Shown here in pieces: positions 8,588-28,700 of a DNA stretch of 64,000 nt. The notes beneath the pieces were generated by a model that did no database searches, had not been told where the DNA came from, and was given only the letters and a program-made list of their open reading frames with translations. The translations under genes were made by a program, and so were the position numbers. Origin of the DNA: Fastidiosipila sp. (GTDB taxonomy: Bacteria; Bacillota; Clostridia; Saccharofermentanales; DTU023); the NCBI GenBank assembly GCA_012511175.1, contig JAAZGO010000026.1, positions 9,073 through 73,072 on the forward strand. Direction: 5' to 3'. Position 1 is the stretch's first letter, and each line of letters starts with the position of its first letter.

Positions 8588-8590
8588 GAA

Positions 8591-8599
8591 GATGGTTTC
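8591..8599. repeat. left copy of 9-bp direct repeat GATGGTTTC (target-site duplication)
   Basis: Identical 9-mer at 17044-17052. Both copies lie immediately outside the terminal inverted repeats. Confidence 0.8.
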
Positions 8600-8600
8600 T

Positions 8601-8624
8601 ATATATTCCAATTAGAGGGTGATG
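8601..8624. repeat. left terminal inverted repeat
   Basis: ATATATTCCAATTAGAGGGTGATG versus the reverse complement of 17018-17041, ATATATTCCAACCATCGGGTGATG. That is 20/24 identical, with an 11-bp outer block and an 8-bp inner block perfect. Confidence 0.75.
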
Positions 8625-8664
8625 GCTAGTCTCCCGCGTCATATAGAGCCTAGAATTAAAGGGT

Positions 8665-8704
8665 AAGCACATATTGTGGTATTTTCACGCAATATGTGCT
8701 TTTT
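8665..8704 (+). terminator. 12-bp perfect hairpin + T-run just inside the left end
   Basis: AAGCACATATTG-13 nt-CAATATGTGCTT followed by TTTT. It is positioned to stop read-through from the DUF3810 gene into the element. Confidence 0.5.
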
Positions 8705-8798
8705 ATGACAAATTTTAGGTCTTTCAGGTGGAGAAAATCAACTCAAAATAATCTTAAAGATAGTCATTTCTAAACCGTTAAAGTTTCTCAAAATGCTC

Positions 8799-8821
8799 TA
8801 TAATGATATTCAGCTTATAAG
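8799..8821 (+). promoter_or_regulatory. candidate -10 (TATAAT 8799-8804) and downstream palindrome CTTATAAG (8814-8821) ahead of the wHTH gene
   Basis: Perfect -10 hexamer but only a weak -35. An 8-bp perfect palindrome lies about 10 nt downstream. Assignment is speculative. Confidence 0.3.
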
Positions 8822-8846
8822 ACATTTTATTTTAGGAGTGATTTTC

Positions 8847-9122
8847 ATGGAATTTACCTTAGAGTTCTTTATGAACGACAGATACCAGCTTCTAAAACTT
8901 CTTCACGACAATCAGGTTAAAATCAAAGATGACTTCTATGTTCCGCTGTCTCAGCAGGAGATGGCAGATATGGCAAGAATGTCAAAATTGAAAACCAACC
9001 GAATTATCAACGAATTGATTGAAGAAGGATTTTTAGAAAGCTACAAAAACAAACGTGGCAAATACGAAATAACTGAAAAGGGTATGAAAGCCCTGTTCTT
9101 AATTCAAAAGACTAACGCCTGA
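8847..9122 (+). CDS. small winged-helix DNA-binding protein (possible controller of the R-M operon or element)
   Basis: The ATG at 8847 follows TAGGAGTG by 6 nt. The track start 8793 overlaps the TATAAT box. The 91-aa product contains LSQQEMADMARMSKLKTNRIINELIEEGFLE...KRGKYEITEKG (HTH plus wing). Confidence 0.6.
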   Translation: MEFTLEFFMNDRYQLLKLLHDNQVKIKDDFYVPLSQQEMADMARMSKLKTNRIINELIEEGFLESYKNKRGKYEITEKGMKALFLIQKTNA

Positions 9123-9141
9123 GTAAAGGAGGGCTATAACT

Positions 9142-10923
9142 TTGAATGAAATACAAAGAAACCATCAAACAACAATCAACGTGACTCAAAAGGCCAACCT
9201 TATTTGGGCAATAGCAGACATCATTGGGCAGGGTCTTTATAAACCCCACGAATACGGCAAGATTATTTTGCCTATGACCGTCATCAAGCGATTCAATGAC
9301 GCTCTTCTTCCGACCAAAGCAGAGGTCATGAGGGAATATGAAAAGACGAAACACCTGCAGGTTGCTGACATTCTTTTAGAGAGGGCTTCGGGGTATCTCT
9401 TTTACAACATCAGCCCTTTCACTTTTGAAAATCTTGTTCAAGACCCTGACCACATCGAAGCAAACTTTAGAGCCTTCTTGGGTGGCTTCTCTGAAAATGT
9501 AAAAGATGTCTTGGATAACTTTGAGTTTGAAAAAGAGATATCAAAGCTGGCAAATAACGGAATGCTCTTTTTGATTATCCAGGAGTTTAATAAACCGAGT
9601 GCTTACATGGGTCCTGACCTTATTTCCAGCACGGACATGGGCTACGTCTTCGAGGAATTGGTCAGACGCTTTTCTGAGTCCTACAACGAACAAGCAGGAG
9701 CTCACTTCACAAGCCGAGACATTATCTACCTCATGACAGACCTTCTTATCTCAGAAGACAGGGAAGTTTTGACTCAGGAGACGGTTGGGAAAACAGTTTA
9801 TGACCAAACCATGGGAACCAGCCAAATGCTGGCTTGTATGGAAGAAAGGATCAAAGACCTAAACAAAGAAGCTGGCGTAATTTTGTTCGGACAAGAATTA
9901 AATCCCGAAACTTATGCTATAGCCAAAGCGGATATGCTCATCAAGGGTGGCAACGCTGAAAACATGAAACTTGGGAATACGCTCACCAATGATCAGTTCC
10001 CTGGCTATACCTTCGACTACTGTATTTCCAATCCTCCCTTTGGGATTGACTGGAAGGTAGAAAAATCCTTTGTTGAGGCAGAAGCTAAAAAAGGGAATGC
10101 AGGACGTTTTGGTGTAGGACTTCCCCGAATTAGTGACGGGCAGCAGCTCTTTGACCTGAATGGACTTGCTAAGCTTAAGGATACGGGGAGAATGGCGATT
10201 GTCCATAATGGCTCTCCCTTGTTTGTGGGGGACGCAGGGTCAGGTTCCAGCGAAATCAGACGCTACATCATAGAGAACGACTGGCTGGAAGCAATCGTTC
10301 AATTACCCAATGACAGCTTTTACAACACGGGGATTACAACCTATGTCTGGATTATGTCAAAGAATAAAGCCCCTCACAGAAGAGGGCGAGTTCAGTTGAT
10401 TGATGCGTCCAAGATGTTTGACAAGAGGCGTAAATCCATCGGACATAAAAGAAACGATATATCAGAAGCTTGCAGGGAAGTTATCATTCAGGCTTACGGA
10501 GAGTTCGAAGACAAAGAATACGAGCTTGGTGACCGTGTTTGTGAGTCCAAGATTTTTGAGAATATTGAGTTTGGTTTTAATCGAATCGTGATTGAAACGC
10601 CTGAATATGATGAGAACGGACAGGCTGTAAAAAATAGGGGCAAAAAGGTTGCGGATACCAAGAAGCGTGACTATGAGAATGTTCCCCTCACCGAAGACAT
10701 TGACAGTTATTTTGAAAGAGAGGTAAAACCTTACAATCCTGACGCTTGGATTGATAAGAACAAAATATCTGTTGGATATGAGATTCCCTTCACTCGTTAT
10801 TTCTACAAGTTCCAGCCGCCTGAGAAGTCTGAAGATATTGCTGACCGGATTATGGCGATGGAAAAAGACCTCATGGTTTCTCTTCATGAATTGTTTTCTG
10901 ACGGAGGTGAGGCAGTTGAGTAG
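9142..10923 (+). CDS. hsdM: type I restriction-modification system, methyltransferase subunit
   Basis: 593 aa, TTG start 8 nt after AAAGGAGGG. HsdM N-terminal motif ANLIWAIADII..YKPHEYGKIILPMTVIKRF. SAM-binding region DQTMGTSQML and catalytic NPPFG (CISNPPFGIDW). Confidence 0.9.
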   Translation: MNEIQRNHQTTINVTQKANLIWAIADIIGQGLYKPHEYGKIILPMTVIKRFNDALLPTKAEVMREYEKTKHLQVADILLERASGYLFYNISPFTFENLVQDPDHIEANFRAFLGGFSENVKDVLDNFEFEKEISKLANNGMLFLIIQEFNKPSAYMGPDLISSTDMGYVFEELVRRFSESYNEQAGAHFTSRDIIYLMTDLLISEDREVLTQETVGKTVYDQTMGTSQMLACMEERIKDLNKEAGVILFGQELNPETYAIAKADMLIKGGNAENMKLGNTLTNDQFPGYTFDYCISNPPFGIDWKVEKSFVEAEAKKGNAGRFGVGLPRISDGQQLFDLNGLAKLKDTGRMAIVHNGSPLFVGDAGSGSSEIRRYIIENDWLEAIVQLPNDSFYNTGITTYVWIMSKNKAPHRRGRVQLIDASKMFDKRRKSIGHKRNDISEACREVIIQAYGEFEDKEYELGDRVCESKIFENIEFGFNRIVIETPEYDENGQAVKNRGKKVADTKKRDYENVPLTEDIDSYFEREVKPYNPDAWIDKNKISVGYEIPFTRYFYKFQPPEKSEDIADRIMAMEKDLMVSLHELFSDGGEAVE

Positions 10924-12172
10924 ACGAATGAAAGATTCAGGTGTTGAGTGGATAGGGGAGATACCAGAAGACTGGGGAATGTCCTTATTAGGTAATCACT
11001 TTAGAGAGCGAACAGAGAGAGTTTCTGACTTTGATTATGAGCCACTATCCGTGACAAAAAGAGGGATACTCAGGCAACTTGAAACTGTTGCTAAAACGTC
11101 GAATAGAGACGACAGGAAGAAAGTCTGCATCAATGATTTTGTTATAAACTCACGCTCGGATAGAAAGCAATCGTGCGGTTTATCGTCACTAAACGGGTCG
11201 GTCTCTGTAATAAACACTGTGCTTGCGATAAGAGATATTGACCCAGAATACGCAAAGTATCTATTAGACAATTACGGTTTCGCTGAAGAGTTTTATAGGT
11301 GGGGAACAGGAATAGTCGATGATCTTTGGTCCACAAGATACAGCTCAATGAAGAAGATTCGAATTCCTATTCCTCCTCAACAGGTTCAGTCGAGAATCGC
11401 CACCTACCTCGACCAAAAAACCGCAACCATCGACCACATTATTGAGAAGACAAAAGAATCCATTGAAGACTACAAGCTATACAAACAATCCCTGATAAGT
11501 GAAGCCGTCACCAAGGGGCTTAGCCCTGATATGAAACTCAAAGATAGCGGTGTTGAGTGGATTGGGGAGATGCCTGAGCATTGGGCTATAAGCAAAATAA
11601 AGCACGTTGCGGATTTTGCTCCAAATCTGAACTTGGAGTTTGATGAGGAACAACCTATCGGCTACGTTCCTATGGATCGAGTGAAAAGCGGCTACCTGTT
11701 GCCCGGAGAAAGCTTGTTCCAAAATCTGAGCACCGGACTTGTTCCTTTCCAAGAGGGTGATATCGTCATGGCAAAGGTGACGCCATGTTTTGAAAATGGA
11801 AATATTGCGGTTGCGAAGAATTTATCACAACGAGTTGCTTACGGAAGTTCAGAGCTGTTTGTTTTTAGGAGTCATGGGGTAGATACTGACTATCTATATT
11901 ATTTTCTTCAAACAAATCTCTTTAAAGATGCTTCTGTTGCAACAATGACGGGGACGGGGGGGCTAAAACGCGTATCATCTTCTTTCGTAAGGAACGCCTA
12001 TCTTCCCATGCCTTCAGTTGTAGAGCAAAAAGAAATCTCTTCCCATCTGGGTAGAGAAATAAGGAAGATGGAAGAAACGATTATTCAAAAAGAACAACTC
12101 ATTGAAGACTTAGAAGCTTACAAAAAATCCCTCATCTACGAAGTTGTCACAGGCAAAAGGGAGGTTCAGTAA
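10916..12172 (+). CDS. hsdS: type I restriction-modification system, specificity subunit
   Basis: Two-TRD architecture. The conserved segment is repeated (MKDSGVEWIGEIPEDW at the N-terminus and LKDSGVEWIGEMPEHW mid-protein; DNA about 10931-10977 versus 11540-11586). Coiled-coil spacers are present (EDYKLYKQSLISEAVTKG / EDLEAYKKSLIYEVVTGK). TTG 10916 (GGAGG 8 nt upstream, overlapping the hsdM end) is preferred. ATG 10928 is an alternative. Confidence 0.85.
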   Translation: MSRRMKDSGVEWIGEIPEDWGMSLLGNHFRERTERVSDFDYEPLSVTKRGILRQLETVAKTSNRDDRKKVCINDFVINSRSDRKQSCGLSSLNGSVSVINTVLAIRDIDPEYAKYLLDNYGFAEEFYRWGTGIVDDLWSTRYSSMKKIRIPIPPQQVQSRIATYLDQKTATIDHIIEKTKESIEDYKLYKQSLISEAVTKGLSPDMKLKDSGVEWIGEMPEHWAISKIKHVADFAPNLNLEFDEEQPIGYVPMDRVKSGYLLPGESLFQNLSTGLVPFQEGDIVMAKVTPCFENGNIAVAKNLSQRVAYGSSELFVFRSHGVDTDYLYYFLQTNLFKDASVATMTGTGGLKRVSSSFVRNAYLPMPSVVEQKEISSHLGREIRKMEETIIQKEQLIEDLEAYKKSLIYEVVTGKREVQ

Positions 12173-12174
12173 TC

Positions 12175-15100
12175 ATGGACTACAAAGAAAAACGCTTTGA
12201 AGAGGACATCGAACAATGGCTTCTGATCTATGGCGGTTATACCAAAGGCGACCAAAAAACCTATGACAGAAAAAAAGCCCTTGACCTCCCCAAGCTGGTT
12301 GAGTTCATTCAAGCAACCCAACCCAAAGCATGGGAACGCTACGTCTATACCTACAAAGCGGACGCAGAAAACAAGCTATTCAAACGGTTTACTGAGGAAG
12401 TTGAATTAAACGGACTTCTCCATGTTCTAAGGCGAGGGATAACCGACCACGGGATCAGACTCCGTGTCGCAGCCTTCCCTCAAGAGTCAACCCTCAATCC
12501 GGAGGTCGTAAAGAACTATGAAGCCAATATCCTGACAGTCACCCGGCAATTCAAGTATTCCACAGCCAATGAAAATTCGATTGATATGGTGTTGTCATTA
12601 AATGGCATACCTATTGTTGCTTTGGAGCTGAAAGACCAATTTACAGGTCAGAATGTTGATAACGCCAAAAAGCAATTCATGTATAACCGTGACCCAAGAG
12701 AACTCTGCTTCCAATTCAATAAACGCTTCCTGGTTTGTTTTGCGGTTGACTTAGATGAAGTTGAGATGACAACAAAGCTCGAAAGGGGCAACACCGTCTT
12801 CTTACCTTTCAATCAGGGAAGTAGTGGTTCGGGGAAAGTAGGAGGGGCAGGGAACCCCAAAAACGTTGAGGGCTATCCAGTTTCATATTTATGGGAACAG
12901 GTTTTGAAAAAAGACTCTCTCATGGATCTTTTGAGGCGTTATCTCCATTTAGATCAAAAGGTTGAGAAAGTCGTAAAGAACGGCAAGGAGACCCGAAAGA
13001 GAGAAGAGAAACTCATTTTCCCCCGCTACCATCAGCTCGATTCTGTCCGGTATCTTTTAGGGGACGCAAGAGCAAATGGCAGCGGTCAAAACTACCTTAT
13101 TCAACACAGTGCCGGTTCAGGAAAGTCAAACTCCATCGCTTGGCTTTCTTATGGATTGGCAAGCCTCCATGATGAGAATAACCAACATATCTTTAATTCG
13201 GTTATCGTGGTGACTGACCGGAAGGTATTGGACAATCAGCTCCAAAGAACCATCTCTTCTTTTGACCATACCAAGGGGCTTATTGAAATAATAGACGACA
13301 AAAAGACCTCTCAGGATTTGAGGAAAGCCATCAATGACGGGAAGCGGATTATTGTCACGACCCTTCAAAAGTTCCCCTTCATCTACGAAGAAATTGATGA
13401 AGTGAAAGGCAAACGCTTTGCTGTCATCGTTGACGAAGCCCATTCAAGCCAGACGGGAAAGAGTGCGGCAAAGCTACGGGAAGGTCTGACGGATACGGAA
13501 GAAGCTCTCAGGGAATACGAGAGGATTGAGTCAGCCGAAGAAAGGGAAGCAGAAGACTACGAAGATAAGATTGTAAATGAGCTTTTGGCTCACGGCCGCC
13601 AGGAGAATCTTTCTTTCTTTGCCTTTACCGCAACCCCCAAACAAAAGACGTTAGAAGTATTCGGCAAGAAGACACCCGAAGGCTCTTTTATTGCTCACCA
13701 TATTTACAGCATGAGACAAGCCATTGAAGAGGGCTTTATCCTGGATGTCTTGAAAAACTACATGACTTACAAAACCTGCTACAAGATTGCCAAAGAAACA
13801 GAAGATAACCCAGCATTACCGTCTTCCCTTGCGACAAGAACCATCAAAAACTACCAGTCGCTTCACCCTTATAACCTCCAACAAAAAACGGCCATCATTA
13901 TTGAACAGTTCCGAGAGGTCACAAAAAAGAAAATCGGAGGAAGAGCCAAAGCTATGGTGGTCACGTCTTCCCGTCTTCATGCGGTGAGATATTACCATGA
14001 GTTCAAACACTACATTGAACGAAAAGGTTATGAGGATGTCGATATTCTGGTTGCCTTTTCGGGGATTGTGAAAGACCATTCCATTGATTACACCGAAGAG
14101 GGGATCAATAAGAGAAGAGACGGCAGCACCATCAAGGAAGACCAGCTCAGAGACGATTTTCACGGAGATGATTTCAATGTTCTGATTGTTGCTGAAAAAT
14201 ACCAGACTGGATTTGACGAACCACTCCTTCACAGTATGTTTGTCGATAAAAAGCTGGAAGGTGTGAAGGCAGTCCAAACTTTATCAAGGTTGAACCGTAT
14301 TTACCAAGGAAAAGAAGACACCTTCGTTTTGGATTTTGTGAATACGGGTGATGACATTCAAGAAGCCTTCAAGCCTTACTATGAGGCAACCATTCTTGAT
14401 GAAGAAATAAACATCAACTTGATTTACGATACGAGGTCAGCCCTTCAGCAATACGGTCTTTACAATAACGAGGACATAGAAGAATTCGTCAAGATTTACT
14501 ACAAGAAGGGGAAACAGACGGAGACTGATTTGGGGCGTATGACTTCCGCATTAAAACCCGCTGTCAAACGCTACGAGGATCTGGACGAGGATGAGCGTTT
14601 TGGTTTCAAGCGTATCGCAAGAAACTTCGTCAGGTGGTATGCCTATATCACTCAGATTGCCAGAATGTTTGATAAAGAACTTCACAAGGAATATGTCTTT
14701 GTTTCCTACCTTGAAAAGCTTCTTCCCAAAGTCAGTCCGGATCCCGTTGATTTAGAGGGAAAGCTGAAACTTGAATTCTACAAATTACAGCAGACCTTCA
14801 AGGGCGACATTAGTTTCTCACCCATCGGGGAAGAACAGGTCATATATAACCCTGAGAACATCAACCCTGAATCCAGTCCGGAACCGGACGAGCTCTTGGA
14901 AACTATCATCAAGCGTATCAACGATCGTTATACGGGAACGTTTTCTGAAAGCGATAGGGTAATTGTTGAGACAATTTACAACCGAGGAATCAAGAACAAC
15001 AAAGAAGTTGAAAAATATGTCAAAAGCAACGACATGGAAGTTTTCATAAACAGTATTTTCCCCCAAGTTTTCAAGGCAATAGCTCAGAGCCTTTATGCTG

Positions 15101-15198
15101 AATCAATCGAGTCATACACGAAGCTTTTTGAGGACAGAGAACTCTACGCTTCGGTCATGGAAGAGATGGCACGACAAGCCTATAAAGAGCTTGGATAA
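12175..15198 (+). CDS. hsdR: type I restriction endonuclease, R subunit
   Basis: 1007 aa. N-terminal PD-(D/E)xK-like nuclease region (IDMVLSLNGIPIVALELKDQ). SF2 motor with Walker A-like QHSAGSGKS and DEAH box (VIVDEAHSSQTG), then helicase C motifs (AEKYQTGFDEP, QTLSRLNR). Confidence 0.9.
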   Translation: MDYKEKRFEEDIEQWLLIYGGYTKGDQKTYDRKKALDLPKLVEFIQATQPKAWERYVYTYKADAENKLFKRFTEEVELNGLLHVLRRGITDHGIRLRVAAFPQESTLNPEVVKNYEANILTVTRQFKYSTANENSIDMVLSLNGIPIVALELKDQFTGQNVDNAKKQFMYNRDPRELCFQFNKRFLVCFAVDLDEVEMTTKLERGNTVFLPFNQGSSGSGKVGGAGNPKNVEGYPVSYLWEQVLKKDSLMDLLRRYLHLDQKVEKVVKNGKETRKREEKLIFPRYHQLDSVRYLLGDARANGSGQNYLIQHSAGSGKSNSIAWLSYGLASLHDENNQHIFNSVIVVTDRKVLDNQLQRTISSFDHTKGLIEIIDDKKTSQDLRKAINDGKRIIVTTLQKFPFIYEEIDEVKGKRFAVIVDEAHSSQTGKSAAKLREGLTDTEEALREYERIESAEEREAEDYEDKIVNELLAHGRQENLSFFAFTATPKQKTLEVFGKKTPEGSFIAHHIYSMRQAIEEGFILDVLKNYMTYKTCYKIAKETEDNPALPSSLATRTIKNYQSLHPYNLQQKTAIIIEQFREVTKKKIGGRAKAMVVTSSRLHAVRYYHEFKHYIERKGYEDVDILVAFSGIVKDHSIDYTEEGINKRRDGSTIKEDQLRDDFHGDDFNVLIVAEKYQTGFDEPLLHSMFVDKKLEGVKAVQTLSRLNRIYQGKEDTFVLDFVNTGDDIQEAFKPYYEATILDEEININLIYDTRSALQQYGLYNNEDIEEFVKIYYKKGKQTETDLGRMTSALKPAVKRYEDLDEDERFGFKRIARNFVRWYAYITQIARMFDKELHKEYVFVSYLEKLLPKVSPDPVDLEGKLKLEFYKLQQTFKGDISFSPIGEEQVIYNPENINPESSPEPDELLETIIKRINDRYTGTFSESDRVIVETIYNRGIKNNKEVEKYVKSNDMEVFINSIFPQVFKAIAQSLYAESIESYTKLFEDRELYASVMEEMARQAYKELG

Positions 15199-15202
15199 AG
15201 AA

Positions 15203-15262
15203 GGGGGTATATAATTTCCCCCAATGATTACACGAAGCCGTCAGAGAGCGTCTGGCGGCTTC
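15203..15262. terminator. two hairpins between convergent hsdR and the transposase gene
   Basis: GGGGG-10 nt-CCCCC (15203-15222), T-rich on the minus-strand side. GAAGCCG-15 nt-CGGCTTC (15234-15262). Confidence 0.4.
15222..15234. repeat. inner inverted repeat, left copy (CAATGATTACACG)
   Basis: 12/13 match to the reverse complement of 16987-16999 (CATTGATTACACG). The pair closely brackets the transposase gene. Confidence 0.5.
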
Positions 15263-15265
15263 CTG

Positions 15266-16879
15266 CTACATGAAACGACTGGCACGAATCGCTTCTAAAT
15301 CTTCCTCTGAAATCTTCATGGGTTGGTTCTCGGAAATCAACCGATAAAGAATATTTTCAATGTCAGGGTGCTTCAAAATCATAGAGATAAGAACCCATTT
15401 GTTCATTTTTCTGTAGCCCCTAATTCCACACTCTTTAGAGATTTCATAGAGCCTGGAATTAGGCAAGTCGAACAGATATTCACGCCTGTTGAAACTTCTA
15501 ACACCATCTTCTTCATTAAACTTGAAGTATTTATTGTTGGTGGCTTCCCTTGCTCTCTTGGTATTCTCACGAAGGAGGGTAGTATATCGAGAGCTTGGCA
15601 TAGGAAGGTTGATTTCTTGTTGCATGACTTCGGGAAGAGTGTAATTCGCCATTCCTTTCAAAATTTCAACAAAAATCATTTCAGCGTCTTTTTCCGATGA
15701 GGGATACTTGCCATGCGTCACTCTCCAATTTCGGATGTAATTGAAAAAGCCAACATAGTATTCAAGATACTTCGTTGAAACATTCGTCATGTTCTTAACG
15801 ATATAGAGCTTAATGTCCTTATGAAGCTCATTGACACGGGCGAGATTTAACCCTTTTTCTTTTCGAAGTTTCAAAAAATCTTCATAGAGCAGTCCACCCA
15901 CGTTATTGATGTGATCGATTTCTTCTCTTCGGTAAAGTCTATTCATAATGACAGCATTTTCCCGTCTTGCTTCTTTTACTCCAAAGACATCCGCAAGGTC
16001 TGCATCCACAACTCCGTTGCTTTTCAAAATCTCGTCATAGTTAGACGGCCGAACATAATGAGGATAATTGAATATTCCACACACTTCCTTATAGACGGTG
16101 TTGGCGTCCGAGCAAACATAAGCAGGATGGTCAAGGTGTTCTACAAAAAAGTCTGTAATCAGTTCTTTGGTGACCCGACCCATCGCTGTCACTTTGCAAA
16201 CACAATAGCCCCTGTTATCAATGGCTGTGACTACCGTGGCAAATTCAGGACCCATGACTCCCACTATTGAGGGCTTACGACCATAACGGGGTTTCCTCTT
16301 TGTGTCTTTTGAAAGATAGGAAACAAGCCCCCTGCTTCCCTTTTGACTTTCTCGAATAAAGGTTTCATCTACTTGGACAACCCCACTCAGAAGAGGCGTA
16401 TTCATTTTCGAGAGGGCATGGATTAGTTTCATACGCCAGAACCAGACCGTCTTGATATTGATTCCCTCATAGCCATAATCTCTTTCCAAAACATTCTGCA
16501 TGGATTTGAGAGAAAGATTGTTGATTGTCATTTGGAGCATTTTGACCCACGCATCCCAATGCCAGTTGTTCTTTTCAAGGATGGTTCCCGTGAAGCGTGT
16601 AAATCTCTTATGACAAACCTTACACAGATAACGCTGCGAGCCATCAGACCGCTTACCATTCTTGACGACATCCTTGGACTGACAGCTCGGGCAGACACTA
16701 TTGATGTCATGCTTTTCGAGTTGAGATTGAAGGCTGTTTGTGATGGCTTGTTTGACTTCATTATCAAAGCTGACCCCCGACTCTTTTGAGTAGCCGTCCA
16801 CCAGCTTCTTCATGGCGTGAAAGGGGAGCTGTGAGAAGATTTCTTGTAATTCTTGTTCTGAATAAGTCTTCTGGTTCAT
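15266..16879 (-). CDS. IS1595-family (ISXO2-like DDE) transposase with long C-terminal extension
   Basis: ATG 16879 follows GAGAGGAGG; the track's upstream start is less likely. Zinc ribbon CPSCQS...YLCKVCHKRF, then FTGTILEKNNWHWDAWVKML. DDE_Tnp_IS1595-like VVQVDETFI ... VCSDANTVY ... NELHKDIKLYIVKNMTNVSTKYLEYYVGFFNYIRN. The 537 aa compare with roughly 300 aa for typical family members. The C-terminus carries a Rho_N/SAP-like motif (LYEISKECGIRGYRKMNKWVLISMIL). Confidence 0.8.
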   Translation of the reverse strand: MNQKTYSEQELQEIFSQLPFHAMKKLVDGYSKESGVSFDNEVKQAITNSLQSQLEKHDINSVCPSCQSKDVVKNGKRSDGSQRYLCKVCHKRFTRFTGTILEKNNWHWDAWVKMLQMTINNLSLKSMQNVLERDYGYEGINIKTVWFWRMKLIHALSKMNTPLLSGVVQVDETFIRESQKGSRGLVSYLSKDTKRKPRYGRKPSIVGVMGPEFATVVTAIDNRGYCVCKVTAMGRVTKELITDFFVEHLDHPAYVCSDANTVYKEVCGIFNYPHYVRPSNYDEILKSNGVVDADLADVFGVKEARRENAVIMNRLYRREEIDHINNVGGLLYEDFLKLRKEKGLNLARVNELHKDIKLYIVKNMTNVSTKYLEYYVGFFNYIRNWRVTHGKYPSSEKDAEMIFVEILKGMANYTLPEVMQQEINLPMPSSRYTTLLRENTKRAREATNNKYFKFNEEDGVRSFNRREYLFDLPNSRLYEISKECGIRGYRKMNKWVLISMILKHPDIENILYRLISENQPMKISEEDLEAIRASRFM

Positions 16880-16986
16880 CGGAAACCTCCTCTCAATCAA
16901 GGTGCGGTTCATTTCCTTACACCATAAGGCTATCATAATCTCTCGAAAATATCAAGCAGAAAATGGGCATATTTGCATTCTGAAGC

Positions 16987-16999
16987 CGTGTAATCAATG
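16987..16999. repeat. inner inverted repeat, right copy
   Basis: CGTGTAATCAATG. A second TGATTACA-type motif lies at 17012-17021 (reverse strand), adjacent to the outer IR. Confidence 0.5.
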
Positions 17000-17017
17000 T
17001 ATATTGGTGTTTGTAAT

Positions 17018-21695: not shown

Positions 21696-21710
21696 TTATA
21701 ATAATTATGA
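21696..21710. promoter_or_regulatory. PerR/Fur-type box 1
   Basis: TTATAATAATTATGA versus the Bacillus PerR box TTATAATNATTATAA; one mismatch. Confidence 0.6.
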
Positions 21711-21712
21711 CT

Positions 21713-21727
21713 TTGTAATCATTATAA
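21713..21727. promoter_or_regulatory. PerR/Fur-type box 2 (inside the palindrome ATGACTTT-11 nt-AAAGTCAT, 21707-21733)
   Basis: TTGTAATCATTATAA; one mismatch to the PerR box consensus. Its centre is 17 bp from box 1. Confidence 0.6.
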
Positions 21728-21792
21728 AGTCATAAAGGAAGACTGCCCCCTCGGGGATCAGGCAGAACAGACACAGAAAGGAATCGTGAAAA

Positions 21793-22401
21793 ATGCCAAT
21801 GGTCGGAAAACAGGCCCCCTTGTTCGAAGCAGGCGCCTACTACAAGGGGAAGTTCACCAAGGTGAAACTGGAGGACTACAAAGGTCAATGGGTGATGCTC
21901 TGCTTCTATCCCGGCGACTTTACCTTTGTCTGAGGGACAGAGGTGTCTGCAGTTGCAGCCAAGTATGAAGAATTTGAGAAACTGGGCGTACAGGTCCTGT
22001 CGATCTCGGTTGACAGCGAATTCGTCCACAAGATCTGGAATGACGTCGAGCTGTCGAGAATTGCCGGCAGGGATGTTCCCTTCCCCATGCTGTCCGACTC
22101 CTCGGGCGCCATCGGTGAACTCTATGGCGTCTATGACCGGGAGGCGGGCGTCAATGTCCGCGGCCGTTTCATCATCGATCCCGATGGCAAGATCCAGGCC
22201 ATGGAGGTCCTGACGCCTCCGGTCGGAAGAAACGTCTCAGAAGCCATCCGCCAGATCAAGGCCTACCAGCTGGTACGCAAGACAGGCGGCAAGGAAGTTA
22301 CGCCTTCAGGCTGGCAGGAGGGCGGCAAAACACTTAAACCCGGTATCGGCCTGGTCGGGAAAATCGCTGATCACTGGACGGTCGCCGACTCCTACAAGTG
22401 A
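21793..22401 (+). CDS. prxU: selenocysteine-containing peroxiredoxin (in-frame UGA at codon 47)
   Basis: Read by hand from ATG 21793: [77 protein letters not shown]... The stretch upstream of TGA and the track ORF 21943-22401 are in the same frame. Together they form a full-length 2-Cys-type Prx fold, with TGA exactly at the peroxidatic Cys of FYPxDFTFVCPTE. Confidence 0.8.
21931..21933 (+). other. in-frame TGA read as selenocysteine
   Basis: It replaces the peroxidatic Cys codon. Sequence on both sides is conserved Prx. Confidence 0.75.
21936..21961 (+). promoter_or_regulatory. candidate SECIS region (small hairpins just 3' of the UGA)
   Basis: GACA-GAGG-TGTC (21936-21947) and CTGC-AGTT-GCAG (21947-21958, extendable by 2 bp past a mismatch). 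The stems are short and the fold was not computed. Confidence 0.3.
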
Positions 22402-22431
22402 GTTGAGCCGAAAGAGGAAAGAAGCCGCAAC

Positions 22432-22857
22432 ATGGGCTCAAAGACGGTCGATCTGCTGAAAGAGCACGGAATTAATCCTTCCAGCCAAAGGGTGCATATT
22501 TACCATTACCTGGCGGCCTCCAAGGAACATCCGACGGTTGATGACATTTACGCAGAACTGCAAAAGGACGGCCATCTCTTCTCGCGGGCCACCGTCTACA
22601 ACACGGTCAACCTTTTTCTTGAAAAAGGCTTGATCCGCCCGGTCAAGGTGGAGGCCCACGAAATGCGCTTTGACGCCACCCCGGGTTTTCACGCTCATTT
22701 CAAATGCGAATCCTGCGGCCTTATTTTGGATATTCCCATGAAGGAACCGCTGCCAGATGACACAGGCGGGCTTGAGATCCGCCGGACCAGTGTAATTTTC
22801 AGCGGTCTATGCGGCCAATGCCTAGAGAGTCAAGGCGGCAGGCAAAGCGGGCTTTGA
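22432..22857 (+). CDS. perR: Fur-family transcriptional regulator, PerR-like
   Basis: 141 aa. N-terminal wHTH (SQRVHIYHYLAASKEHPTVDDIY), HAHFKCESCG and a second CxxC (LCGQC). It sits downstream of prxU, behind PerR boxes. Confidence 0.75.
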   Translation: MGSKTVDLLKEHGINPSSQRVHIYHYLAASKEHPTVDDIYAELQKDGHLFSRATVYNTVNLFLEKGLIRPVKVEAHEMRFDATPGFHAHFKCESCGLILDIPMKEPLPDDTGGLEIRRTSVIFSGLCGQCLESQGGRQSGL

Positions 22858-22869
22858 TCTTCCGCTGAT

Positions 22870-22902
22870 CCCCGGCCGCAATAAGCGGCCGGGGAGTTTT
22901 TT
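22870..22902. terminator. hairpin + T-run after perR
   Basis: CCCCGGCCGC-aataa-GCGGCCGGGG followed by AGTTTTTT. Confidence 0.75.
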
Positions 22903-24377
22903 CAGCGGTCTGTCAGGGGGATTTCCAGCTGAATCCTGCCATCACGCCGGACACGGGGAATCTTATTTTTCCGGAAGTACTCAATCACATTATCCTGGGC
23001 CGAGGTGCTGACTACCCGCACGCGGCCCTTTTCCGCCAACTCTTCCTGGCTGATCCCGAATGTATCGGCGATGATGCCAAAATGATAGTCCTGCATGGCA
23101 ATCCGGTAATCCGCTTCTGGGTCAAGCGGATTGCCTTTCATCAGGATTTCCCCGATCTCCCCGTCCCCGCCGACCCGGACCCGGAGTTCCGCGTTCCATT
23201 GGTAAAATTCACGCGATCCCTCCCTGTGCAAGGTCCGCATCAGATGCGCCAGCATGTCTTCCAGTACCCGGCCGGTGACAGAGAAGCTGATCATGGCCTC
23301 ATCGTAGGGGTAAAGCTCCATCAAGTCGGACCGGGTCACCAGGCGCGACAGTTTGGGCTTGCGGATGGAACCCGAGGCAATAAATACAATATCGACCCCC
23401 AGCTGGAAACGGAGAATATCCGAAAATAAATTGCCGAGTTCTGTTTCGCGGAAGCGGTCCGCGTGTTCCATCTCGTGCGGCAGCCGGCAGATCACCGTAT
23501 TATACTTGCCATCCACCTCTTCCTGGTACTTGGACAGGAGCTCTTCCATGACGGGGTCAGCCGGACAATGCGTGTCATCGATGGGGACCGCCTGCCAGGA
23601 AAATTCGTGGACCGAATTGGTATCCATGTTGATGACAAGATCGAAACGGCCGATAAAATCGGTTCCCGACCCCACCTGGGCGATCAGGATATCATTGACG
23701 CGCTCGGGCGTTTCCAGCATGGTGTGGCTGTGTCCGCCGATGATGAGATCCACACCGATTTCAGGCGGCAGGAGCGCGGCCAGTTTCTTATCCTGCTCGA
23801 AGCCGATATGTGTTAAGAGAACAGTCAGGTCGATGTCGACGTCCTTGTAGCTGTTGCAGATGTACTCAACTTCTTCCGCGGCGTCCTCGATGCTGATAAA
23901 AGTACCGACCAGGGGCTCGCTCTTGCTTTTGGCGATTACTTCCTCGGTGACAATCCCGATGAAAAGTATCCTGATTCCGTCTGTTTCAATGATGTGGTAG
24001 GGCTTGAAGAGGTTGGCGCCCGTCGGCTTGATATAAAGGTTGGCGTTGACGATGGGAAAGTTGGCACAGCGTTCCAGGAACATGAGGTGTGAGAAGCCAT
24101 AGTCAGTCTCATGGTTGCCCAGTGTCACCACATCGGGCTCCAGCATGTTCATGACCAAGATGGTTGAAATCCCCCGGTATTCCTGATCGATGATGGATCC
24201 CTGGAGCATGTCTCCCGAGATGACGTAGAGAACCGGATCAGTCTCCTCTTCCCTGACCTTGTGAACATAGCCTGAGAGCCGGCTCATGCCGCCGACCATC
24301 TTGTCGTGGGTTTCCTTGGCGAAAAAATCGCCGTGCATGTCATTGGAATGAAGCAATACCAGCTTTCTCAGATCCAT
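22902..24377 (-). CDS. bifunctional metallophosphatase/5'-nucleotidase family protein
   Basis: 491 aa. Motifs HSNDMHGDF, GDMLQG, GNHETDYG and GGHSH, plus a C-terminal nucleotidase domain. No signal peptide. Confidence 0.85.
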   Translation of the reverse strand: MDLRKLVLLHSNDMHGDFFAKETHDKMVGGMSRLSGYVHKVREEETDPVLYVISGDMLQGSIIDQEYRGISTILVMNMLEPDVVTLGNHETDYGFSHLMFLERCANFPIVNANLYIKPTGANLFKPYHIIETDGIRILFIGIVTEEVIAKSKSEPLVGTFISIEDAAEEVEYICNSYKDVDIDLTVLLTHIGFEQDKKLAALLPPEIGVDLIIGGHSHTMLETPERVNDILIAQVGSGTDFIGRFDLVINMDTNSVHEFSWQAVPIDDTHCPADPVMEELLSKYQEEVDGKYNTVICRLPHEMEHADRFRETELGNLFSDILRFQLGVDIVFIASGSIRKPKLSRLVTRSDLMELYPYDEAMISFSVTGRVLEDMLAHLMRTLHREGSREFYQWNAELRVRVGGDGEIGEILMKGNPLDPEADYRIAMQDYHFGIIADTFGISQEELAEKGRVRVVSTSAQDNVIEYFRKNKIPRVRRDGRIQLEIPLTDR

Positions 24378-24522
24378 TCACCAACCTCCGCAAAGTGGCG
24401 GGCGGGCGTTTCCCGCCCTCTCTTTTTCCCCCAAAATATAGCACAGGAAAGGCTCTGCGGACCTTCTTTTTCCCACTCCCGGTATATGATAATTTTTAAT
24501 CGATAATTTAAGACTGAATGGA

Positions 24523-24550
24523 TTGACATTCGCGATTCCTTATTTATAAT
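24523..24550 (+). promoter_or_regulatory. near-consensus sigma-A promoter of the lipoprotein/apbE genes
   Basis: TTGACA, 16-nt spacer, TATAAT. A GGAGGAGG RBS precedes ATG 24595. Confidence 0.6.
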
Positions 24551-24594
24551 GGATACGTGGCAAAAATTGTCATAATTTTGGAGGAGGAAATCCT

Positions 24595-25605
24595 ATGAAA
24601 AAAATAATCGTTTTAATCCTCGTTGCCGTCCTGGCTCTTGGATTGGTTGCCTGCAGCAAGAAGCCCGCCAAGGTTGAAGGCGCGGTCAAAACCGGTTTCG
24701 GAGTCGGCTTCAGCAACTACAATTCAAAAGACTTTGATGAAGACGTGGGAAAAGGCACCGTCGACTCGCAGGCCTATGCGGCAGCCGTCATGGTCGATAA
24801 GGACGGCAAGGTGGTCAAGTGCACCATTGACGCCATGATGTCCCAATTCGCATTCAATGAGGAAGAGATCCTGACCGGGCCTGAAACGGTTTTCAAGACC
24901 AAAAATGAACTCGGTGACGACTATGGCATGAGAAAAGCTTCACCGATCGGCAAAGAGTGGTTTGAACAGGCAGCGGCCTTCGCGGAATACTGCGTCGGCA
25001 AGACGGCCGATGAGATCAAAAATATCGCTGTTTCCGATGACGGCAAGGCGACCGACAAGGATCTGACCTCTTCTGTCACCGTTCCGGTCAAGGGCTACCA
25101 GGATCCCGTCCTCATGGCCATCGCCAATGCCCAGGACCTGGGCGCGCAGGCCACCGACAAGCTGGGGCTGGGCATTGTGGGAACCGGCGAGCAAACCGTT
25201 GTCAAAGAAGATGACGGCGCGCCCGCGACAGCTGTCGCTTACAACCATTATTGCGTGCTGACCCTGGACGCCGACGGCAAGATCACCTCCTGCATCTTTG
25301 ATGCCTCCCAGGGCAAGTTCAAGGTCGAGGACGGCAAGATCACGACCGACCTGATGGCGGAAATCAAGACCAAGAACGCCTTGGGTGATGATTACGGGAT
25401 GAGAAAAGCATCTCCCATCAAGAAAGAGTGGAATGAACAGGCTGAGGCCTTTGCCAAGTACGTTACCGGCAAAAAGGTTGATGAAGTCGGCGGCATGAGC
25501 CTGAAAGAAGGAGCTCCTGACGTGGCGGACCTCTCCTCCTCCTGCACCATGCACGTGGTCGACCTGATCGGCGCGGTCAACAAGGCTGCCGCTTCCGCCA
25601 AGTAA
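24595..25605 (+). CDS. lipoprotein with two tandem FMN_bind-like domains
   Basis: Signal peptide plus lipobox (LGLVAC). Internal duplication: KTKNELGDDYGMRKASPIGKEWFEQAAAFAEYCVGKTADEI...DLTSSVTV versus KTKNALGDDYGMRKASPIKKEWNEQAEAFAKYVTGKKVDEV...DLSSSCTM. Confidence 0.75.
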   Translation: MKKIIVLILVAVLALGLVACSKKPAKVEGAVKTGFGVGFSNYNSKDFDEDVGKGTVDSQAYAAAVMVDKDGKVVKCTIDAMMSQFAFNEEEILTGPETVFKTKNELGDDYGMRKASPIGKEWFEQAAAFAEYCVGKTADEIKNIAVSDDGKATDKDLTSSVTVPVKGYQDPVLMAIANAQDLGAQATDKLGLGIVGTGEQTVVKEDDGAPATAVAYNHYCVLTLDADGKITSCIFDASQGKFKVEDGKITTDLMAEIKTKNALGDDYGMRKASPIKKEWNEQAEAFAKYVTGKKVDEVGGMSLKEGAPDVADLSSSCTMHVVDLIGAVNKAAASAK

Positions 25606-25627
25606 TTATTGAGGCGCAAAAGTTTTC

Positions 25628-25662
25628 AAACAGGCTGTTTCCAAAGAAGAAACAGCCTGTTT
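25628..25662 (+). terminator. 14-bp hairpin between the lipoprotein gene and apbE (possible attenuating terminator)
   Basis: AAACAGGCTGTTTC-7 nt-GAAACAGCCTGTTT, with only a weak T-tract after it. Confidence 0.4.
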
Positions 25663-25691
25663 CCTTGTCTCGCAAAACAGGCGGAGCAGCT

Positions 25692-26750
25692 ATGAAACGT
25701 AAGGGACTTTTCCTTTTTTTGATATTTTTCCTTTGTTCCCTGATAGCCGCCTGCACCGGGCCGGGGAAGGAGGACAAGGGACCCCAAAAATATGAAGCCG
25801 AATTCGTCGGCCTTTTCGATACCCTGACCCGGGTCATGGGCTACGCCGACAGCCAGGATGCATTCAAGTCGACCGTCCAGGCCTTGAAGGACGATCTTGA
25901 AGTCTACCACCAGCTTTATGACATTTATCATGCCTACCCCGGCCGGGTCAACATCAGGACCCTGAATGAGAAAGCCGGCCAGGGCCCGGTCGAGGTTGAT
26001 CCGAAAATCATCGGCCTGCTCCTGTTTTCCAGGGAGGCTTATGACCAAACGGACGGCCGTGTCAACATCGCCTTGGGCGCGGTGACCGGGATCTGGCACC
26101 GCTACCGCCAGGAGGGCATCGATGATCCCCAGGCAGCCCGGCTGCCCGGCAGGGATCTCCTGGAGGAGGCGGCGCGGCATAGCTCCATTGATGACCTGAT
26201 CATTGATCAGGTCCGCTCCACGGTGGAACTGAAAGATCCCCGGATGAGCCTGGATGTGGGGGCGGTGGCCAAGGGCTATGCGGTGGAGCAGGCAGCCCTG
26301 GCGGCTGAGGCCCGCGGCGTCAAGCACCTTCTGATCTCCGTCGGCGGCAACGTTCGGGCCATCGGAGCCCGCAATGACCGGGGCGAACCCTGGCGGGTCG
26401 GCATCGAGAATCCCGATTATGCCGTGGATGATTACCTGGCCATCGTCAAGGCCGATTCCCTGTCTGTGGTAACAAGCGGCGTCTACGAGCGCTTTTACCT
26501 GGTGGATGGTAAATCCTACCATCACATCATTGACCCTGATACCCTTTTCCCGGAAAACAGGTACCTGTCTGTCTCCGTCATCACCCCGGATTCCGGCCTG
26601 GCCGACGTCCTTTCGACAGCCCTTTTCAACCTGGATTTGGAGGAAGGGAAAAAACTGATCGAGAGTCTGGACCGGACCGAAGCGCTCTGGTGCATGCCGG
26701 ACGGCAGCCTGATCGAAAGCAGCGGATTTTCAGCCTTTATAGAAGAATAA
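25692..26750 (+). CDS. apbE: FAD:protein FMN transferase (ApbE family) lipoprotein
   Basis: ATG 25692 (GGAG 6 nt upstream). Lipobox LIAAC. ApbE-like blocks LDVGAVAKGYAV, ISVGGNVRAIG and HHIIDPDT. Confidence 0.85.
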   Translation: MKRKGLFLFLIFFLCSLIAACTGPGKEDKGPQKYEAEFVGLFDTLTRVMGYADSQDAFKSTVQALKDDLEVYHQLYDIYHAYPGRVNIRTLNEKAGQGPVEVDPKIIGLLLFSREAYDQTDGRVNIALGAVTGIWHRYRQEGIDDPQAARLPGRDLLEEAARHSSIDDLIIDQVRSTVELKDPRMSLDVGAVAKGYAVEQAALAAEARGVKHLLISVGGNVRAIGARNDRGEPWRVGIENPDYAVDDYLAIVKADSLSVVTSGVYERFYLVDGKSYHHIIDPDTLFPENRYLSVSVITPDSGLADVLSTALFNLDLEEGKKLIESLDRTEALWCMPDGSLIESSGFSAFIEE

Positions 26751-26751
26751 G

Positions 26752-27306
26752 TTAGCTGGCTTCTTCCTTATGCTGCGGCAGGGGAAGTGCTGTCAGATTG
26801 CGGATAACCGGACCCGCGGCAGCACCGGTCAGGACTCCTGTCAGCAGGCCCGTGATCAGCAGGGGCGGCAAATAGGTCACAAGGAGCAGGGGTTCTGCCA
26901 GAACCAGGCTTGCGACACCTACCTGGCCGATATTGTGGGCCGCGGCCCCGGCCATGCTCATGCCGATGACCGAAAGCGACCTGCCCTCCAGAAAACTCAG
27001 AAGCCACATGACCACAAGGGCCAGCAGGCCTCCTCCCAAGGAAAAAAGCATGGTGGTAATCCCTGTGATGGCGCTCATAATCATGATCCGAACCAGCAGG
27101 ATGGCAAGGGCGTCTGTCACATGCAGCCGCATCAGGGCAACCAGGGTGACGATGTTGGCCAGACCCAGCTTCAAACCGGGAACCGGGACGATCAATTCCA
27201 GCGGAATCCAACGTTCAACCAGGGCCAGGACCAGGGCCAGGGATACCAACATGGCATCCAGGGTCAGGCGGCGCAGCCGCCTCCGTTGTGCCCCCTTGGT
27301 CTTCAC
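26752..27306 (-). CDS. Gx transporter family protein (Hpre_diP_synt_I-type membrane protein)
   Basis: 184 aa, about 5 TM. ERWIPLELIVPVPGLKLGLANIVTLVAL. The GTG start overlaps the upstream stop (GTGA). Confidence 0.7.
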   Translation of the reverse strand: MKTKGAQRRRLRRLTLDAMLVSLALVLALVERWIPLELIVPVPGLKLGLANIVTLVALMRLHVTDALAILLVRIMIMSAITGITTMLFSLGGGLLALVVMWLLSFLEGRSLSVIGMSMAGAAAHNIGQVGVASLVLAEPLLLVTYLPPLLITGLLTGVLTGAAAGPVIRNLTALPLPQHKEEAS

Positions 27307-27719
27307 CGGATCACCACATCAACATCGTCGCCGTCAGCCTGCGGGCCGCCCACTGCTTTCAGGATGACACCCCCGGGCACACAGGCGGCGATTGACCCTC
27401 TTTTCCCCACCCAGCCGGACTGGACACAGACCTTGTCGGGGCAGTCCGCCTCGGCAAAGCGGATCTTCCCCCCGCCCCATTCCAGCCGGTAGTGAAAACC
27501 GCCGAGCGAAATCTCTTCCTCCCCGTTTTTTTGTAAATCACCGGCCCCCCAGGTCCGGACCAGCCGGCCCTCTTGGGTCAGGACCACTGCACCGGCCTCC
27601 GGCCGGCCGGAAAAGACTGGCAAGATGAAAAGTCCGGCAGCCACAAGCAGAATGGCAGCCGCGACTACCAGATCCCCCCAGCGAAAAGCGTGGTACCAGC
27701 GCGGGTGATGTCGGGTCAT
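27303..27719 (-). CDS. NusG domain II-containing protein (DUF1312)
   Basis: TM anchor followed by CPDKVCVQSGWV...GSIAACVPGGVIL. ATG 27719 follows AAGGAG. The track's TTG at 27761 is possible. Confidence 0.7.
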   Translation of the reverse strand: MTRHHPRWYHAFRWGDLVVAAAILLVAAGLFILPVFSGRPEAGAVVLTQEGRLVRTWGAGDLQKNGEEEISLGGFHYRLEWGGGKIRFAEADCPDKVCVQSGWVGKRGSIAACVPGGVILKAVGGPQADGDDVDVVIR

Positions 27720-27803
27720 GCAACTCCTTGAATCAGTCTTTACTCCCGCCATTATAACCAATTTCAGGCAGGCAATCGGCTATAATCAGCTGAAGGAGAT
27801 TTT

Positions 27804-28700
27804 GTGTTTCATCTGATTTCTTTTCTGACAGGCGCCCTGCTGTCCGTCATGATCCTGATCAACGGCCGTTTAACCGAGCGGATCGGCTTGTATCAGGCAA
27901 CGGCCGTCATTCATCTGGCAGGGGTCCTCTTCTCCTTATTTGCCTCCTGGCTCCGAAAAGAGAAACCGCTCCCGCGCTCGCGGTCACCATGGTGGTTTTA
28001 CCTGGGCGGCGTCATCGGTGTTTACACCGCTCTGGCCAACAACTTTGCCTTTGGCAAAATCACCCTGACCAGTATCGTGGCCCTGGGCCTGCTCGGCCAG
28101 ACCATGGCCTCGCTCGTTATCGACACGACAGGCTGGCTGGGAATGACCCGGCGGCCCTTTCGCAAATCGACCCTGATCGGCCTTGTCTTTTGTTTCGCCG
28201 GCATCGGGATCATGCTGGACCACTCCGTCCTGGAAGCTGTTTTGGCCGTCTGGATGTCTTTCGGCACCGGGATCTCCATCGTCATCTCCCGATCCATCAA
28301 CGCCCGCCTGGCAGAACGGATCGGTCCGCTTCCCGGATCCTTTGTCAACCACCTGACAGGACTTCCAGTCGCTTACGCCCTGGTTCTTCTGACCGCAAAA
28401 AACCAGCCGCCTGTCTCTTATCCGGGAGGCCCGCAATCCTGGGTATATCTGGGAGGGGTGCTGGGTGTTGTTGCCGTCATGCTCTTCAATATCCTGGTCC
28501 CCAGAATTTCGCAGTTTCACCTGACGGTTCTGTCTTTCGTGGGGCAGGTTTTCACCGGCTTTTTCATTGATCTTTTCGTGGGCGGCTTTGCAGCCGATGC
28601 CTCCTTCTGGGGTGGCCTCCTGATTGCGGCCGGAATTGCCCTCAATCTGGGTCTCGAATACAAAGCCTCCCGTAAAGCGGGGCCGTCCCCCTCTAGTTGA
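27804..28700 (+). CDS. DMT-superfamily transporter, duplicated DUF606 (YdcZ-like)
   Basis: 298 aa, about 10 TM, two homologous halves. GTG start after AAGGAG. Confidence 0.65.
   Translation: MFHLISFLTGALLSVMILINGRLTERIGLYQATAVIHLAGVLFSLFASWLRKEKPLPRSRSPWWFYLGGVIGVYTALANNFAFGKITLTSIVALGLLGQTMASLVIDTTGWLGMTRRPFRKSTLIGLVFCFAGIGIMLDHSVLEAVLAVWMSFGTGISIVISRSINARLAERIGPLPGSFVNHLTGLPVAYALVLLTAKNQPPVSYPGGPQSWVYLGGVLGVVAVMLFNILVPRISQFHLTVLSFVGQVFTGFFIDLFVGGFAADASFWGGLLIAAGIALNLGLEYKASRKAGPSPSS

Follow-up and report, generated by a model that had tools for sequence, protein, structure and literature searches.

The window analyzed here, a 64,000-nucleotide stretch of Fastidiosipila sp. DNA (contig JAAZGO010000026.1), encodes a tandem lipoprotein next to an ApbE-type transferase that moves flavin mononucleotide (FMN) from flavin adenine dinucleotide (FAD) onto proteins. 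We consider it likely, judging from sequence comparisons, that this lipoprotein is the PplA-equivalent of a clostridial module for flavin-based extracellular electron transfer (EET) and that it is flavinylated by ApbE at T162 and T318. Many Gram-positive bacteria of the gut and of digesters use flavin-based EET to unload electrons onto iron, electrodes, or flavin shuttles. A first-pass annotation of the window had proposed a redox protein outside the cytoplasm that bears two flavins on acceptor motifs of a variant type; this appears to be the best-supported reading, given homology to proteins of the 2KZX type, a nearly invariant acceptor residue (Thr or Ser in 600/601 ungapped domain copies), and an adjoining apbE in 71/75 loci. 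The EET context, that is, the eetB and eetA genes downstream and the position of the family where PplA would be expected, was absent from that annotation.

A large family of unannotated clostridial lipoproteins

The lipoprotein has 336 amino acids (aa) and begins with MKKIIVLILVAVLALGLVAC, a signal peptide with a lipobox whose Cys20 is invariant among 42 aligned relatives. Its two halves (residues about 32-188 and 189-336) are 38% identical over 149 aa (BLASTP, E 3e-29); thus, the internal duplication noted in the first pass is real, and the repeat is about 155 aa long. AlphaFold2 (AF2) modeled the whole protein with a predicted local distance difference test score (pLDDT) of 93.7 and a predicted template modeling score (pTM) of 0.88, and a single domain with a pLDDT of 94.7. 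The gene remains under purifying selection in the lineage with a reduced locus, with a ratio of nonsynonymous to synonymous substitution rates (dN/dS) of 0.11-0.15 among the three species concerned (those of the window and of loci L005 and L006). A redox-active cysteine in each repeat (C76/C233) was considered and dropped, as no more than 56% of domains have Cys in this column.

The protein belongs to a very large clostridial family that has no Pfam or NCBIfam annotation, and the source name of every relative is "hypothetical protein." Among the scored candidates, the family accounts for 1722 clusters at the 90% identity level, and the domain profile retrieved 1870 representatives of 50% identity clusters at E <= 1e-3, of which 690 at E <= 1e-30. 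Most of the best 150 representatives carry two copies of the domain, several carry four, two carry six and three carry three. Matches to SPASM, DUF5640, and lipoprotein signal-peptide models in Pfam and NCBIfam were discarded as noise.

Conservation of the acceptor motif

Both motifs picked out in the first pass, DLTSSVT and DLSSSCT, are present, the first of them about 5 nt away from the position originally given (it occupies 25060-25080). A survey of relatives, suggested at the same time, revealed which part of the motif is fixed. We tallied the acceptor column in 610 copies of the domain, taken from 280 members of the family: it contains Thr 564 times, Ser 36 times, Asn once, and a gap 9 times, so that Thr or Ser occupies all but one of the ungapped copies. 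Thr and Ser are the two residues able to take the phosphoester. The preceding positions drift, from SSVT to the canonical SGAT (SSVT 229, ASVT 145, AGCT 41, SSAT 8, SGAT 6, AGAT 3, and others). The variant motif can be written [D/E]-L-x-[S/A]-S-V-[T/S]. The motif is also kept in family copies that do not adjoin apbE. Published mutational work fits this pattern: Thr is essential for flavinylation and Asp nearly dispensable, and single G-to-A or A-to-V substitutions in the motif each leave about 50% of flavinylation (PMC12052999). No other protein with the motif D-x-x-[S/T]-G-A-[S/T] is encoded in the window.

Remote homology to FMN-binding domains

When compared with the PDB, the family profile matched one solved structure, 2KZX (E 3e-4; E 6e-4 with the domain-level profile), which carries only the entry name "Uncharacterized protein" and which we take to be Clostridium thermocellum A3DHT5. 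A profile of 240 half-sequences matched P0281 (E 4e-9), 2KZX (5e-6), and P0280 (1e-5) in HMMER, where the E-values assume a database of PDB size. Profile-profile comparison, also proposed in the first pass, linked the lipoprotein domain to the 2KZX-type proteins with 94% probability over 67 columns (hhalign). The stretch aligned with 2KZX reads Y-G-M...K-E-W-x-E-Q-A...Y, followed by D-L-x-S-S-V-T-V-H-V..F, and in the profile alignment the SSVT of the family falls exactly on the SGAT of the 2KZX-type D-A/L-I-S-G-A-T, motif 1 being aligned to the DAISGAT of 2KZX. The 2KZX fragment itself exceeds the Pfam cut-off for FMN_bind (25.7 vs 22 bits). The FMN domain 8P2B also matched the domain-level profile, weakly and in the same register.

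The 2KZX-type material consists of the 131-residue 2KZX chain and of relatives in the form of 48-93 aa fragments, and a search to enlarge this bridging group returned only three short proteins. The domain hidden Markov model, run against all open reading frames (ORFs) of 84 loci, left RnfG and the other FMN_bind proteins encoded there unmatched. On these profile comparisons, the homology of the family to FMN_bind is real but remote.

Gene neighborhood across species

We mapped the neighbors of the lipoprotein gene in 80 loci from different species, using tblastn and clustering of all ORFs. Of the 75 loci with enough sequence, 71 have apbE as the next gene downstream, in the same orientation; in 48 of 57 informative loci, a same-strand gene upstream encodes an Ndh2-type NADH dehydrogenase. 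A polyprenyl synthase (dmkB) and a UbiA prenyltransferase (dmkA) are also present in 44 of these 48, and eetA-eetB often accompany the three genes. The genes usually run in the order ndh2 - polyprenyl synthase - UbiA - NusG_II - PF07456 - lipoprotein - apbE, which Pfam matches in the Sinanaerobacter locus (L048) confirmed; no other conserved neighbors were found across the loci. The family loci are thus the flavin-based EET locus of Listeria with the lipoprotein in PplA's place, the locus with PplA having reportedly been described in Listeria monocytogenes by Light et al. in 2018. At the family level the gene set ndh2, dmkA, dmkB, eetA, eetB, and fmnB is present, and the window holds only fmnB/apbE, eetB, and eetA. 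Two marks of ApbE substrates, an extracytoplasmic location and an association with apbE, are found in the two lipoboxes and in the near-constant adjacency of the genes.

Besides ndh2 and one lipoprotein gene in L043, no gene encoding D-x-x-[S/T]-G-A-[S/T] lies near the lipoprotein gene in the stretches fetched. Motif-bearing genes occur several kb away in L063 (a small FMN_bind protein) and in L044 and L079 (rnfD/rnfG). The L043 gene (L043:4713-5429), just downstream of apbE, encodes a second lipoprotein, of FMN-binding type, with a canonical DAVSGAT and an internally repeated sequence.

The Ndh2-type proteins encoded upstream of the family contain flavinylation-like motifs of their own. One to four such motifs, mostly DAVSSAT and also DGxSGAT, were identified in 36 of 51 full-length proteins (for example L011:2876-4924, L012:2772-4871, and L042:3816-5945, with 33 other loci), in a loop rich in Ala, Ser, and Gly that belongs to the C-terminal membrane domain (residues about 480-540). 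ApbE may therefore act on Ndh2 as well, a role of which we found no mention in the available portions of the cited flavinylation and EET literature. Ser at the Gly position, as in DAVSSAT, is common in these loops, and we count this in favor of a flavinylated lipoprotein.

The locus in the window

The features of the locus are listed in Table 1. The neighboring ApbE-family transferase with its own lipobox, recognized in the first pass, matches PF02424 over profile positions 13-266 of 266. Gene callers on public contigs start this gene at ATG 25692, as opposed to TTG 25665 in the ORF list, and the ATG start yields MKRKGLFLFLIFFLCSLIAAC, which contains the lipobox. On the downstream side of apbE, eetB and eetA are convergent with it. 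In Listeria, PF07456 is EetB, the S subunit of an energy-coupling factor transporter (ECF-S) that exports FAD for extracytoplasmic flavinylation, and PF07009 bears the label EetA in Data Set S1 (PMC9973259).

Table 1. Features of the lipoprotein-apbE locus (window coordinates).
Feature	Position	Strand	Basis
Sigma-70-type promoter, TTGACA-16 nt-TATAAT	24523..24550	+	12/12 positions match
Ribosome-binding site, GGAGGAGG	24580..24587	+	7 nt ahead of ATG, read from sequence
Tandem two-domain lipoprotein, 336 aa, proposed ApbE substrate in PplA position	24595..25605	+	ORF, alignment, AF2
Signal peptide, lipobox L-V-A-C (Cys20)	24595..24654	+	Cys20 invariance
Repeat/domain 1, about residues 30-186	24682..25152	+	BLASTP; single-domain AF2 model
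Acceptor-like motif 1, D156-L-T-S-S-V-T162, with Thr162 (codon 25078-25080) as proposed site of FMN attachment	25060..25080	+	Family logo, 2KZX alignment
Repeat/domain 2, residues 187-336	25153..25602	+	BLASTP
Acceptor-like motif 2, D312-L-S-S-S-C-T318, with Thr318 (codon 25546-25548) as proposed site of FMN attachment	25528..25548	+	Family logo
Intercistronic hairpin, 14-bp perfect stem, 7-nt loop	25628..25662	+	Folding, conservation
ApbE/FmnB-type FAD:protein FMN transferase, lipoprotein, lipobox IAAC (Cys21)	25692..26750	+	PF02424, E 9e-67
EetB homologue, ECF-S-type FAD export subunit	26752..27306	-	PF07456, E 2e-36
EetA homologue (NusG_II)	27303..27719	-	PF07009, E 2e-16

The promoter ahead of the gene pair, described in the first pass as near-consensus, is in fact perfect. 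Both hexamers are invariant in two related species (L005 and L006), the rest of the spacer having drifted, and the ribosome-binding site is kept in related species. The hairpin noted in the first pass between the two genes was likewise found, with stem arms at 25628-25641 and 25649-25662; the complete intergenic stretch (25606-25691) folds with -28.6 kcal/mol (z -3.3). The hairpin is kept in four species (window, L005, L006, and L007), with variable loops and one compensatory change from T-A to C-G. No T-run follows it, and it is therefore not a classical terminator. We infer that it serves as an intercistronic stabilizer or partial stop, and the amount of substrate protein made relative to enzyme may depend on it.

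The reduced layout of the window recurs in its closest species, L005 and L006 (82-84% identity). In L007-L009 (52-62% identity), ndh2-dmkB-dmkA lie directly upstream of the lipoprotein gene, and beyond them, in L009, follow the 5'-nucleotidase and Fur genes that the window also has. The simplest reading is that ndh2-dmkB-dmkA were lost or moved in the window lineage, leaving a four-gene remnant. In the window, the lipoprotein gene is adjoined at a distance of 217 nt (24378-24594) by the divergent 5'-nucleotidase-like gene. A role of its product as a UshA-like periplasmic FAD hydrolase was rejected, as it has no signal peptide and is a neighbor only in close relatives. Genes for a Fur-family regulator and a peroxiredoxin are located 2 kb upstream of the lipoprotein gene. 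No alternative redox partner was identified in the rest of the window, which is taken up by housekeeping genes and by a type I restriction island of low GC content, and an Rfam scan of 21700-27900 returned nothing relevant.

The peroxiredoxin gene (AhpC-TSA; 21793-22401, + strand) has an in-frame TGA exactly at the position of the peroxidatic cysteine and was divided by gene callers into 46-aa and 152-aa products. It may encode a PrxU-type peroxiredoxin with selenocysteine; Rfam gave no match to a selenocysteine insertion sequence (SECIS), and the hairpin that follows the TGA is weak. Separately, the GC content of the window falls to 41-45% at about 8000-17000, compared with about 56% elsewhere. 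This stretch, probably an acquired island, encodes the type I restriction-modification proteins HsdM, HsdS, and HsdR and a protein with a Zn_ribbon_InsA domain.

Proposed mechanism and alternative explanations

We propose that the lipoprotein is exported and would be lipid-anchored via Cys20 on the outer face of the membrane, where FAD would be supplied by export through EetB, together with EetA and a general ECF module. The co-transcribed lipoprotein ApbE/FmnB would then move FAD's FMN moiety onto Thr162 and Thr318, one per repeat. The two repeats may pack as one rigid, pseudo-symmetric unit carrying two covalent flavins, which would pass electrons on to acceptors outside the cytoplasm. The source of these electrons would, in most species, presumably be the products of the Ndh2 and demethylmenaquinone genes directly upstream. 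If the family indeed provides Clostridia with their flavinylated terminal carrier, a function can be given to a "hypothetical lipoprotein" that is very common, the recognition motif of ApbE is wider than the accepted D-x-x-[S/T]-G-A-[S/T], and genome surveys that score EET by matches to PplA or FMN_bind under-count Clostridia.

Several results weigh against this proposal. Neither Pfam nor NCBIfam gave any match for the lipoprotein, its halves, or 41 singly scanned relatives at E values up to 10; the HMMER search against PF04205 proposed in the first pass was thus negative for all of them. The profile-profile comparison that succeeded with the 2KZX type failed for the typical FMN_bind subfamily (hhalign against 120 canonical proteins, 0.8%, not significant), the alignment at the motif again being in the same register. 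Foldseek searches of the PDB with both AF2 models found nothing at E <= 0.001 and no FMN_bind among the 50 matches listed. Those that were listed, weak whole-model matches (MHC-like, apyrase) and single-domain matches to IscU (E 0.015, TM about 0.3), were judged meaningless. Because these three comparisons were negative, the link to FMN_bind rests on one tiny intermediate group, and it is limited to the C-terminal 70 or so residues of the domain. As to the motif, those of the window agree with D-x-x-[S/T]-G-A-[S/T] at the Asp, the Ser of position 4, and the terminal Thr, but not at the Gly and Ala positions, and we know of no ApbE test of a motif that combines G-to-S with A-to-V. Finally, no ndh2, dmkB, or dmkA was found in the 64-kb window, and the electron input is therefore not evident here.

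The last of these points bears on an alternative in which the lipoprotein is flavinylated and its NADH- or quinone-driven EET role is gone from this lineage, the four-gene remnant serving some other extracytoplasmic redox task with input from a different membrane donor or from reduced free flavins. Iron reduction for uptake would be one candidate task, and detoxification beside the Fur-family regulator and peroxiredoxin another. The absence of the three genes from the loci of the window, L005, and L006, their position directly upstream in L007-L009, the continuing purifying selection on the lipoprotein gene, and the two genes 2 kb upstream are all consistent with this scenario. We regard it as rather unlikely, however, since ndh2, dmkB, and dmkA may sit elsewhere in the genome, and the neighbors outside the four-gene module vary across species.

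The departures of the motif at two positions and the silence of the FMN_bind models would also fit a non-flavinylated relative that has kept the fold and the operon position and binds flavin non-covalently, its Thr being structural. Such a protein could, for example, bind flavin shuttles, or it could store FAD/FMN or hand it from EetB to ApbE. In many loci Ndh2, with its own canonical motifs, could then be the real substrate of ApbE. Yet Thr or Ser is retained at the acceptor position while its neighbors drift (in some copies as far as SGAT itself), the motif persists in copies away from apbE, and the co-transcribed ApbE has no other candidate substrate in the window. This makes the non-flavinylated alternative improbable. 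A chance resemblance or ORF artefact, for which nothing speaks beyond the absent database annotation, can safely be dismissed in view of the 1870 representative clusters, the synteny kept in 80 species, the confident structure model, and a dN/dS of about 0.12.

Comparison with known systems

Canonical FMN_bind proteins such as RnfG, NqrC, and 3O6U resemble the lipoprotein family in their layout of beta-strands followed by helices, the last of which is immediately preceded by the acceptor Thr, and in having ApbE partners. They differ in that no significant direct similarity was detected by sequence, profile, or Foldseek. The 2KZX-type proteins (2KZX, P0280, and P0281) share with the family the C-terminal ~70 residues, including Y-x-M...E-W-x-E-Q-A...D-L/A-x-S-x-x-T-x-x-V-x-x-F. 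They differ in carrying the canonical SGAT motif and in passing the Pfam cut-off for FMN_bind.

A domain called FMN-bind2, of ~160 aa and found by BLAST rather than Pfam, was described by Huang, Meheust, Barquera, and Light in 2024, with NTW96865.1 and WP_312031774.1 as examples (PMC11334425). Its copy number per protein is two or four, with six in a single case, and the prediction is that two domains pair through extended beta-strands to give a pseudo-symmetric unit with two flavins (PMC11334425). The repeat of about 155 aa and the copy numbers of two, four, or six in our family are similar, the three proteins with three copies among the best 150 being the exceptions to an even number. Judged by the published description, which fits well, the lipoprotein family is probably the same as FMN-bind2, a subtype of FMN-binding domains. 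The portion of that account available reports no acceptor motif, EET-locus context, or experimental flavinylation (PMC11334425), and the two example accessions were not among the multi-domain matches in a cluster look-up. The part of the mBio Data Set S1 available likewise offered no clear case of an unannotated lipoprotein in a clostridial EET cluster.

More tentatively, and with considerable doubt on our part, the family could be an undescribed domain family of ApbE substrates, distinct from or loosely equal to FMN-bind2, with about 1,900 clusters at 50% identity and only the Thr/Ser fixed. In that case, flavinylome censuses based on Pfam FMN_bind and SGAT-like motifs would overlook, in most EET loci of Clostridia, the flavoprotein at the end of the chain. 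The family and the extracytoplasmic loops of Ndh2, rich in DAVSSAT, would make up a relay built entirely of flavins that leads from the dehydrogenase in the membrane out to the cell surface, and the window lineage would represent a module able to work uncoupled from Ndh2 and quinone.

In function, the lipoprotein would be closest to the PplA of Listeria, to which we liken it by layout and operon slot. PplA is also an extracytoplasmic lipoprotein with two repeated domains and one Thr acceptor in each, and it is encoded with fmnB (apbE), eetA, eetB, ndh2, dmkA, and dmkB, the operon slot being the same at the family level (PMC9973259, PMC8906456). The two sites are 122 aa apart in PplA (T143 and T265) and 156 aa apart in the lipoprotein, which therefore has larger domains. 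The lipoprotein family differs further in being undetected by the FMN_bind model and in its motif (SSVT/SSCT vs the usual SGAT type), and the window locus differs from the Listeria EET locus in having no ndh2, dmkA, dmkB, or fmnA. The EET system is already known, and what is new here is an unannotated domain family, a non-canonical motif, and a shortened locus.

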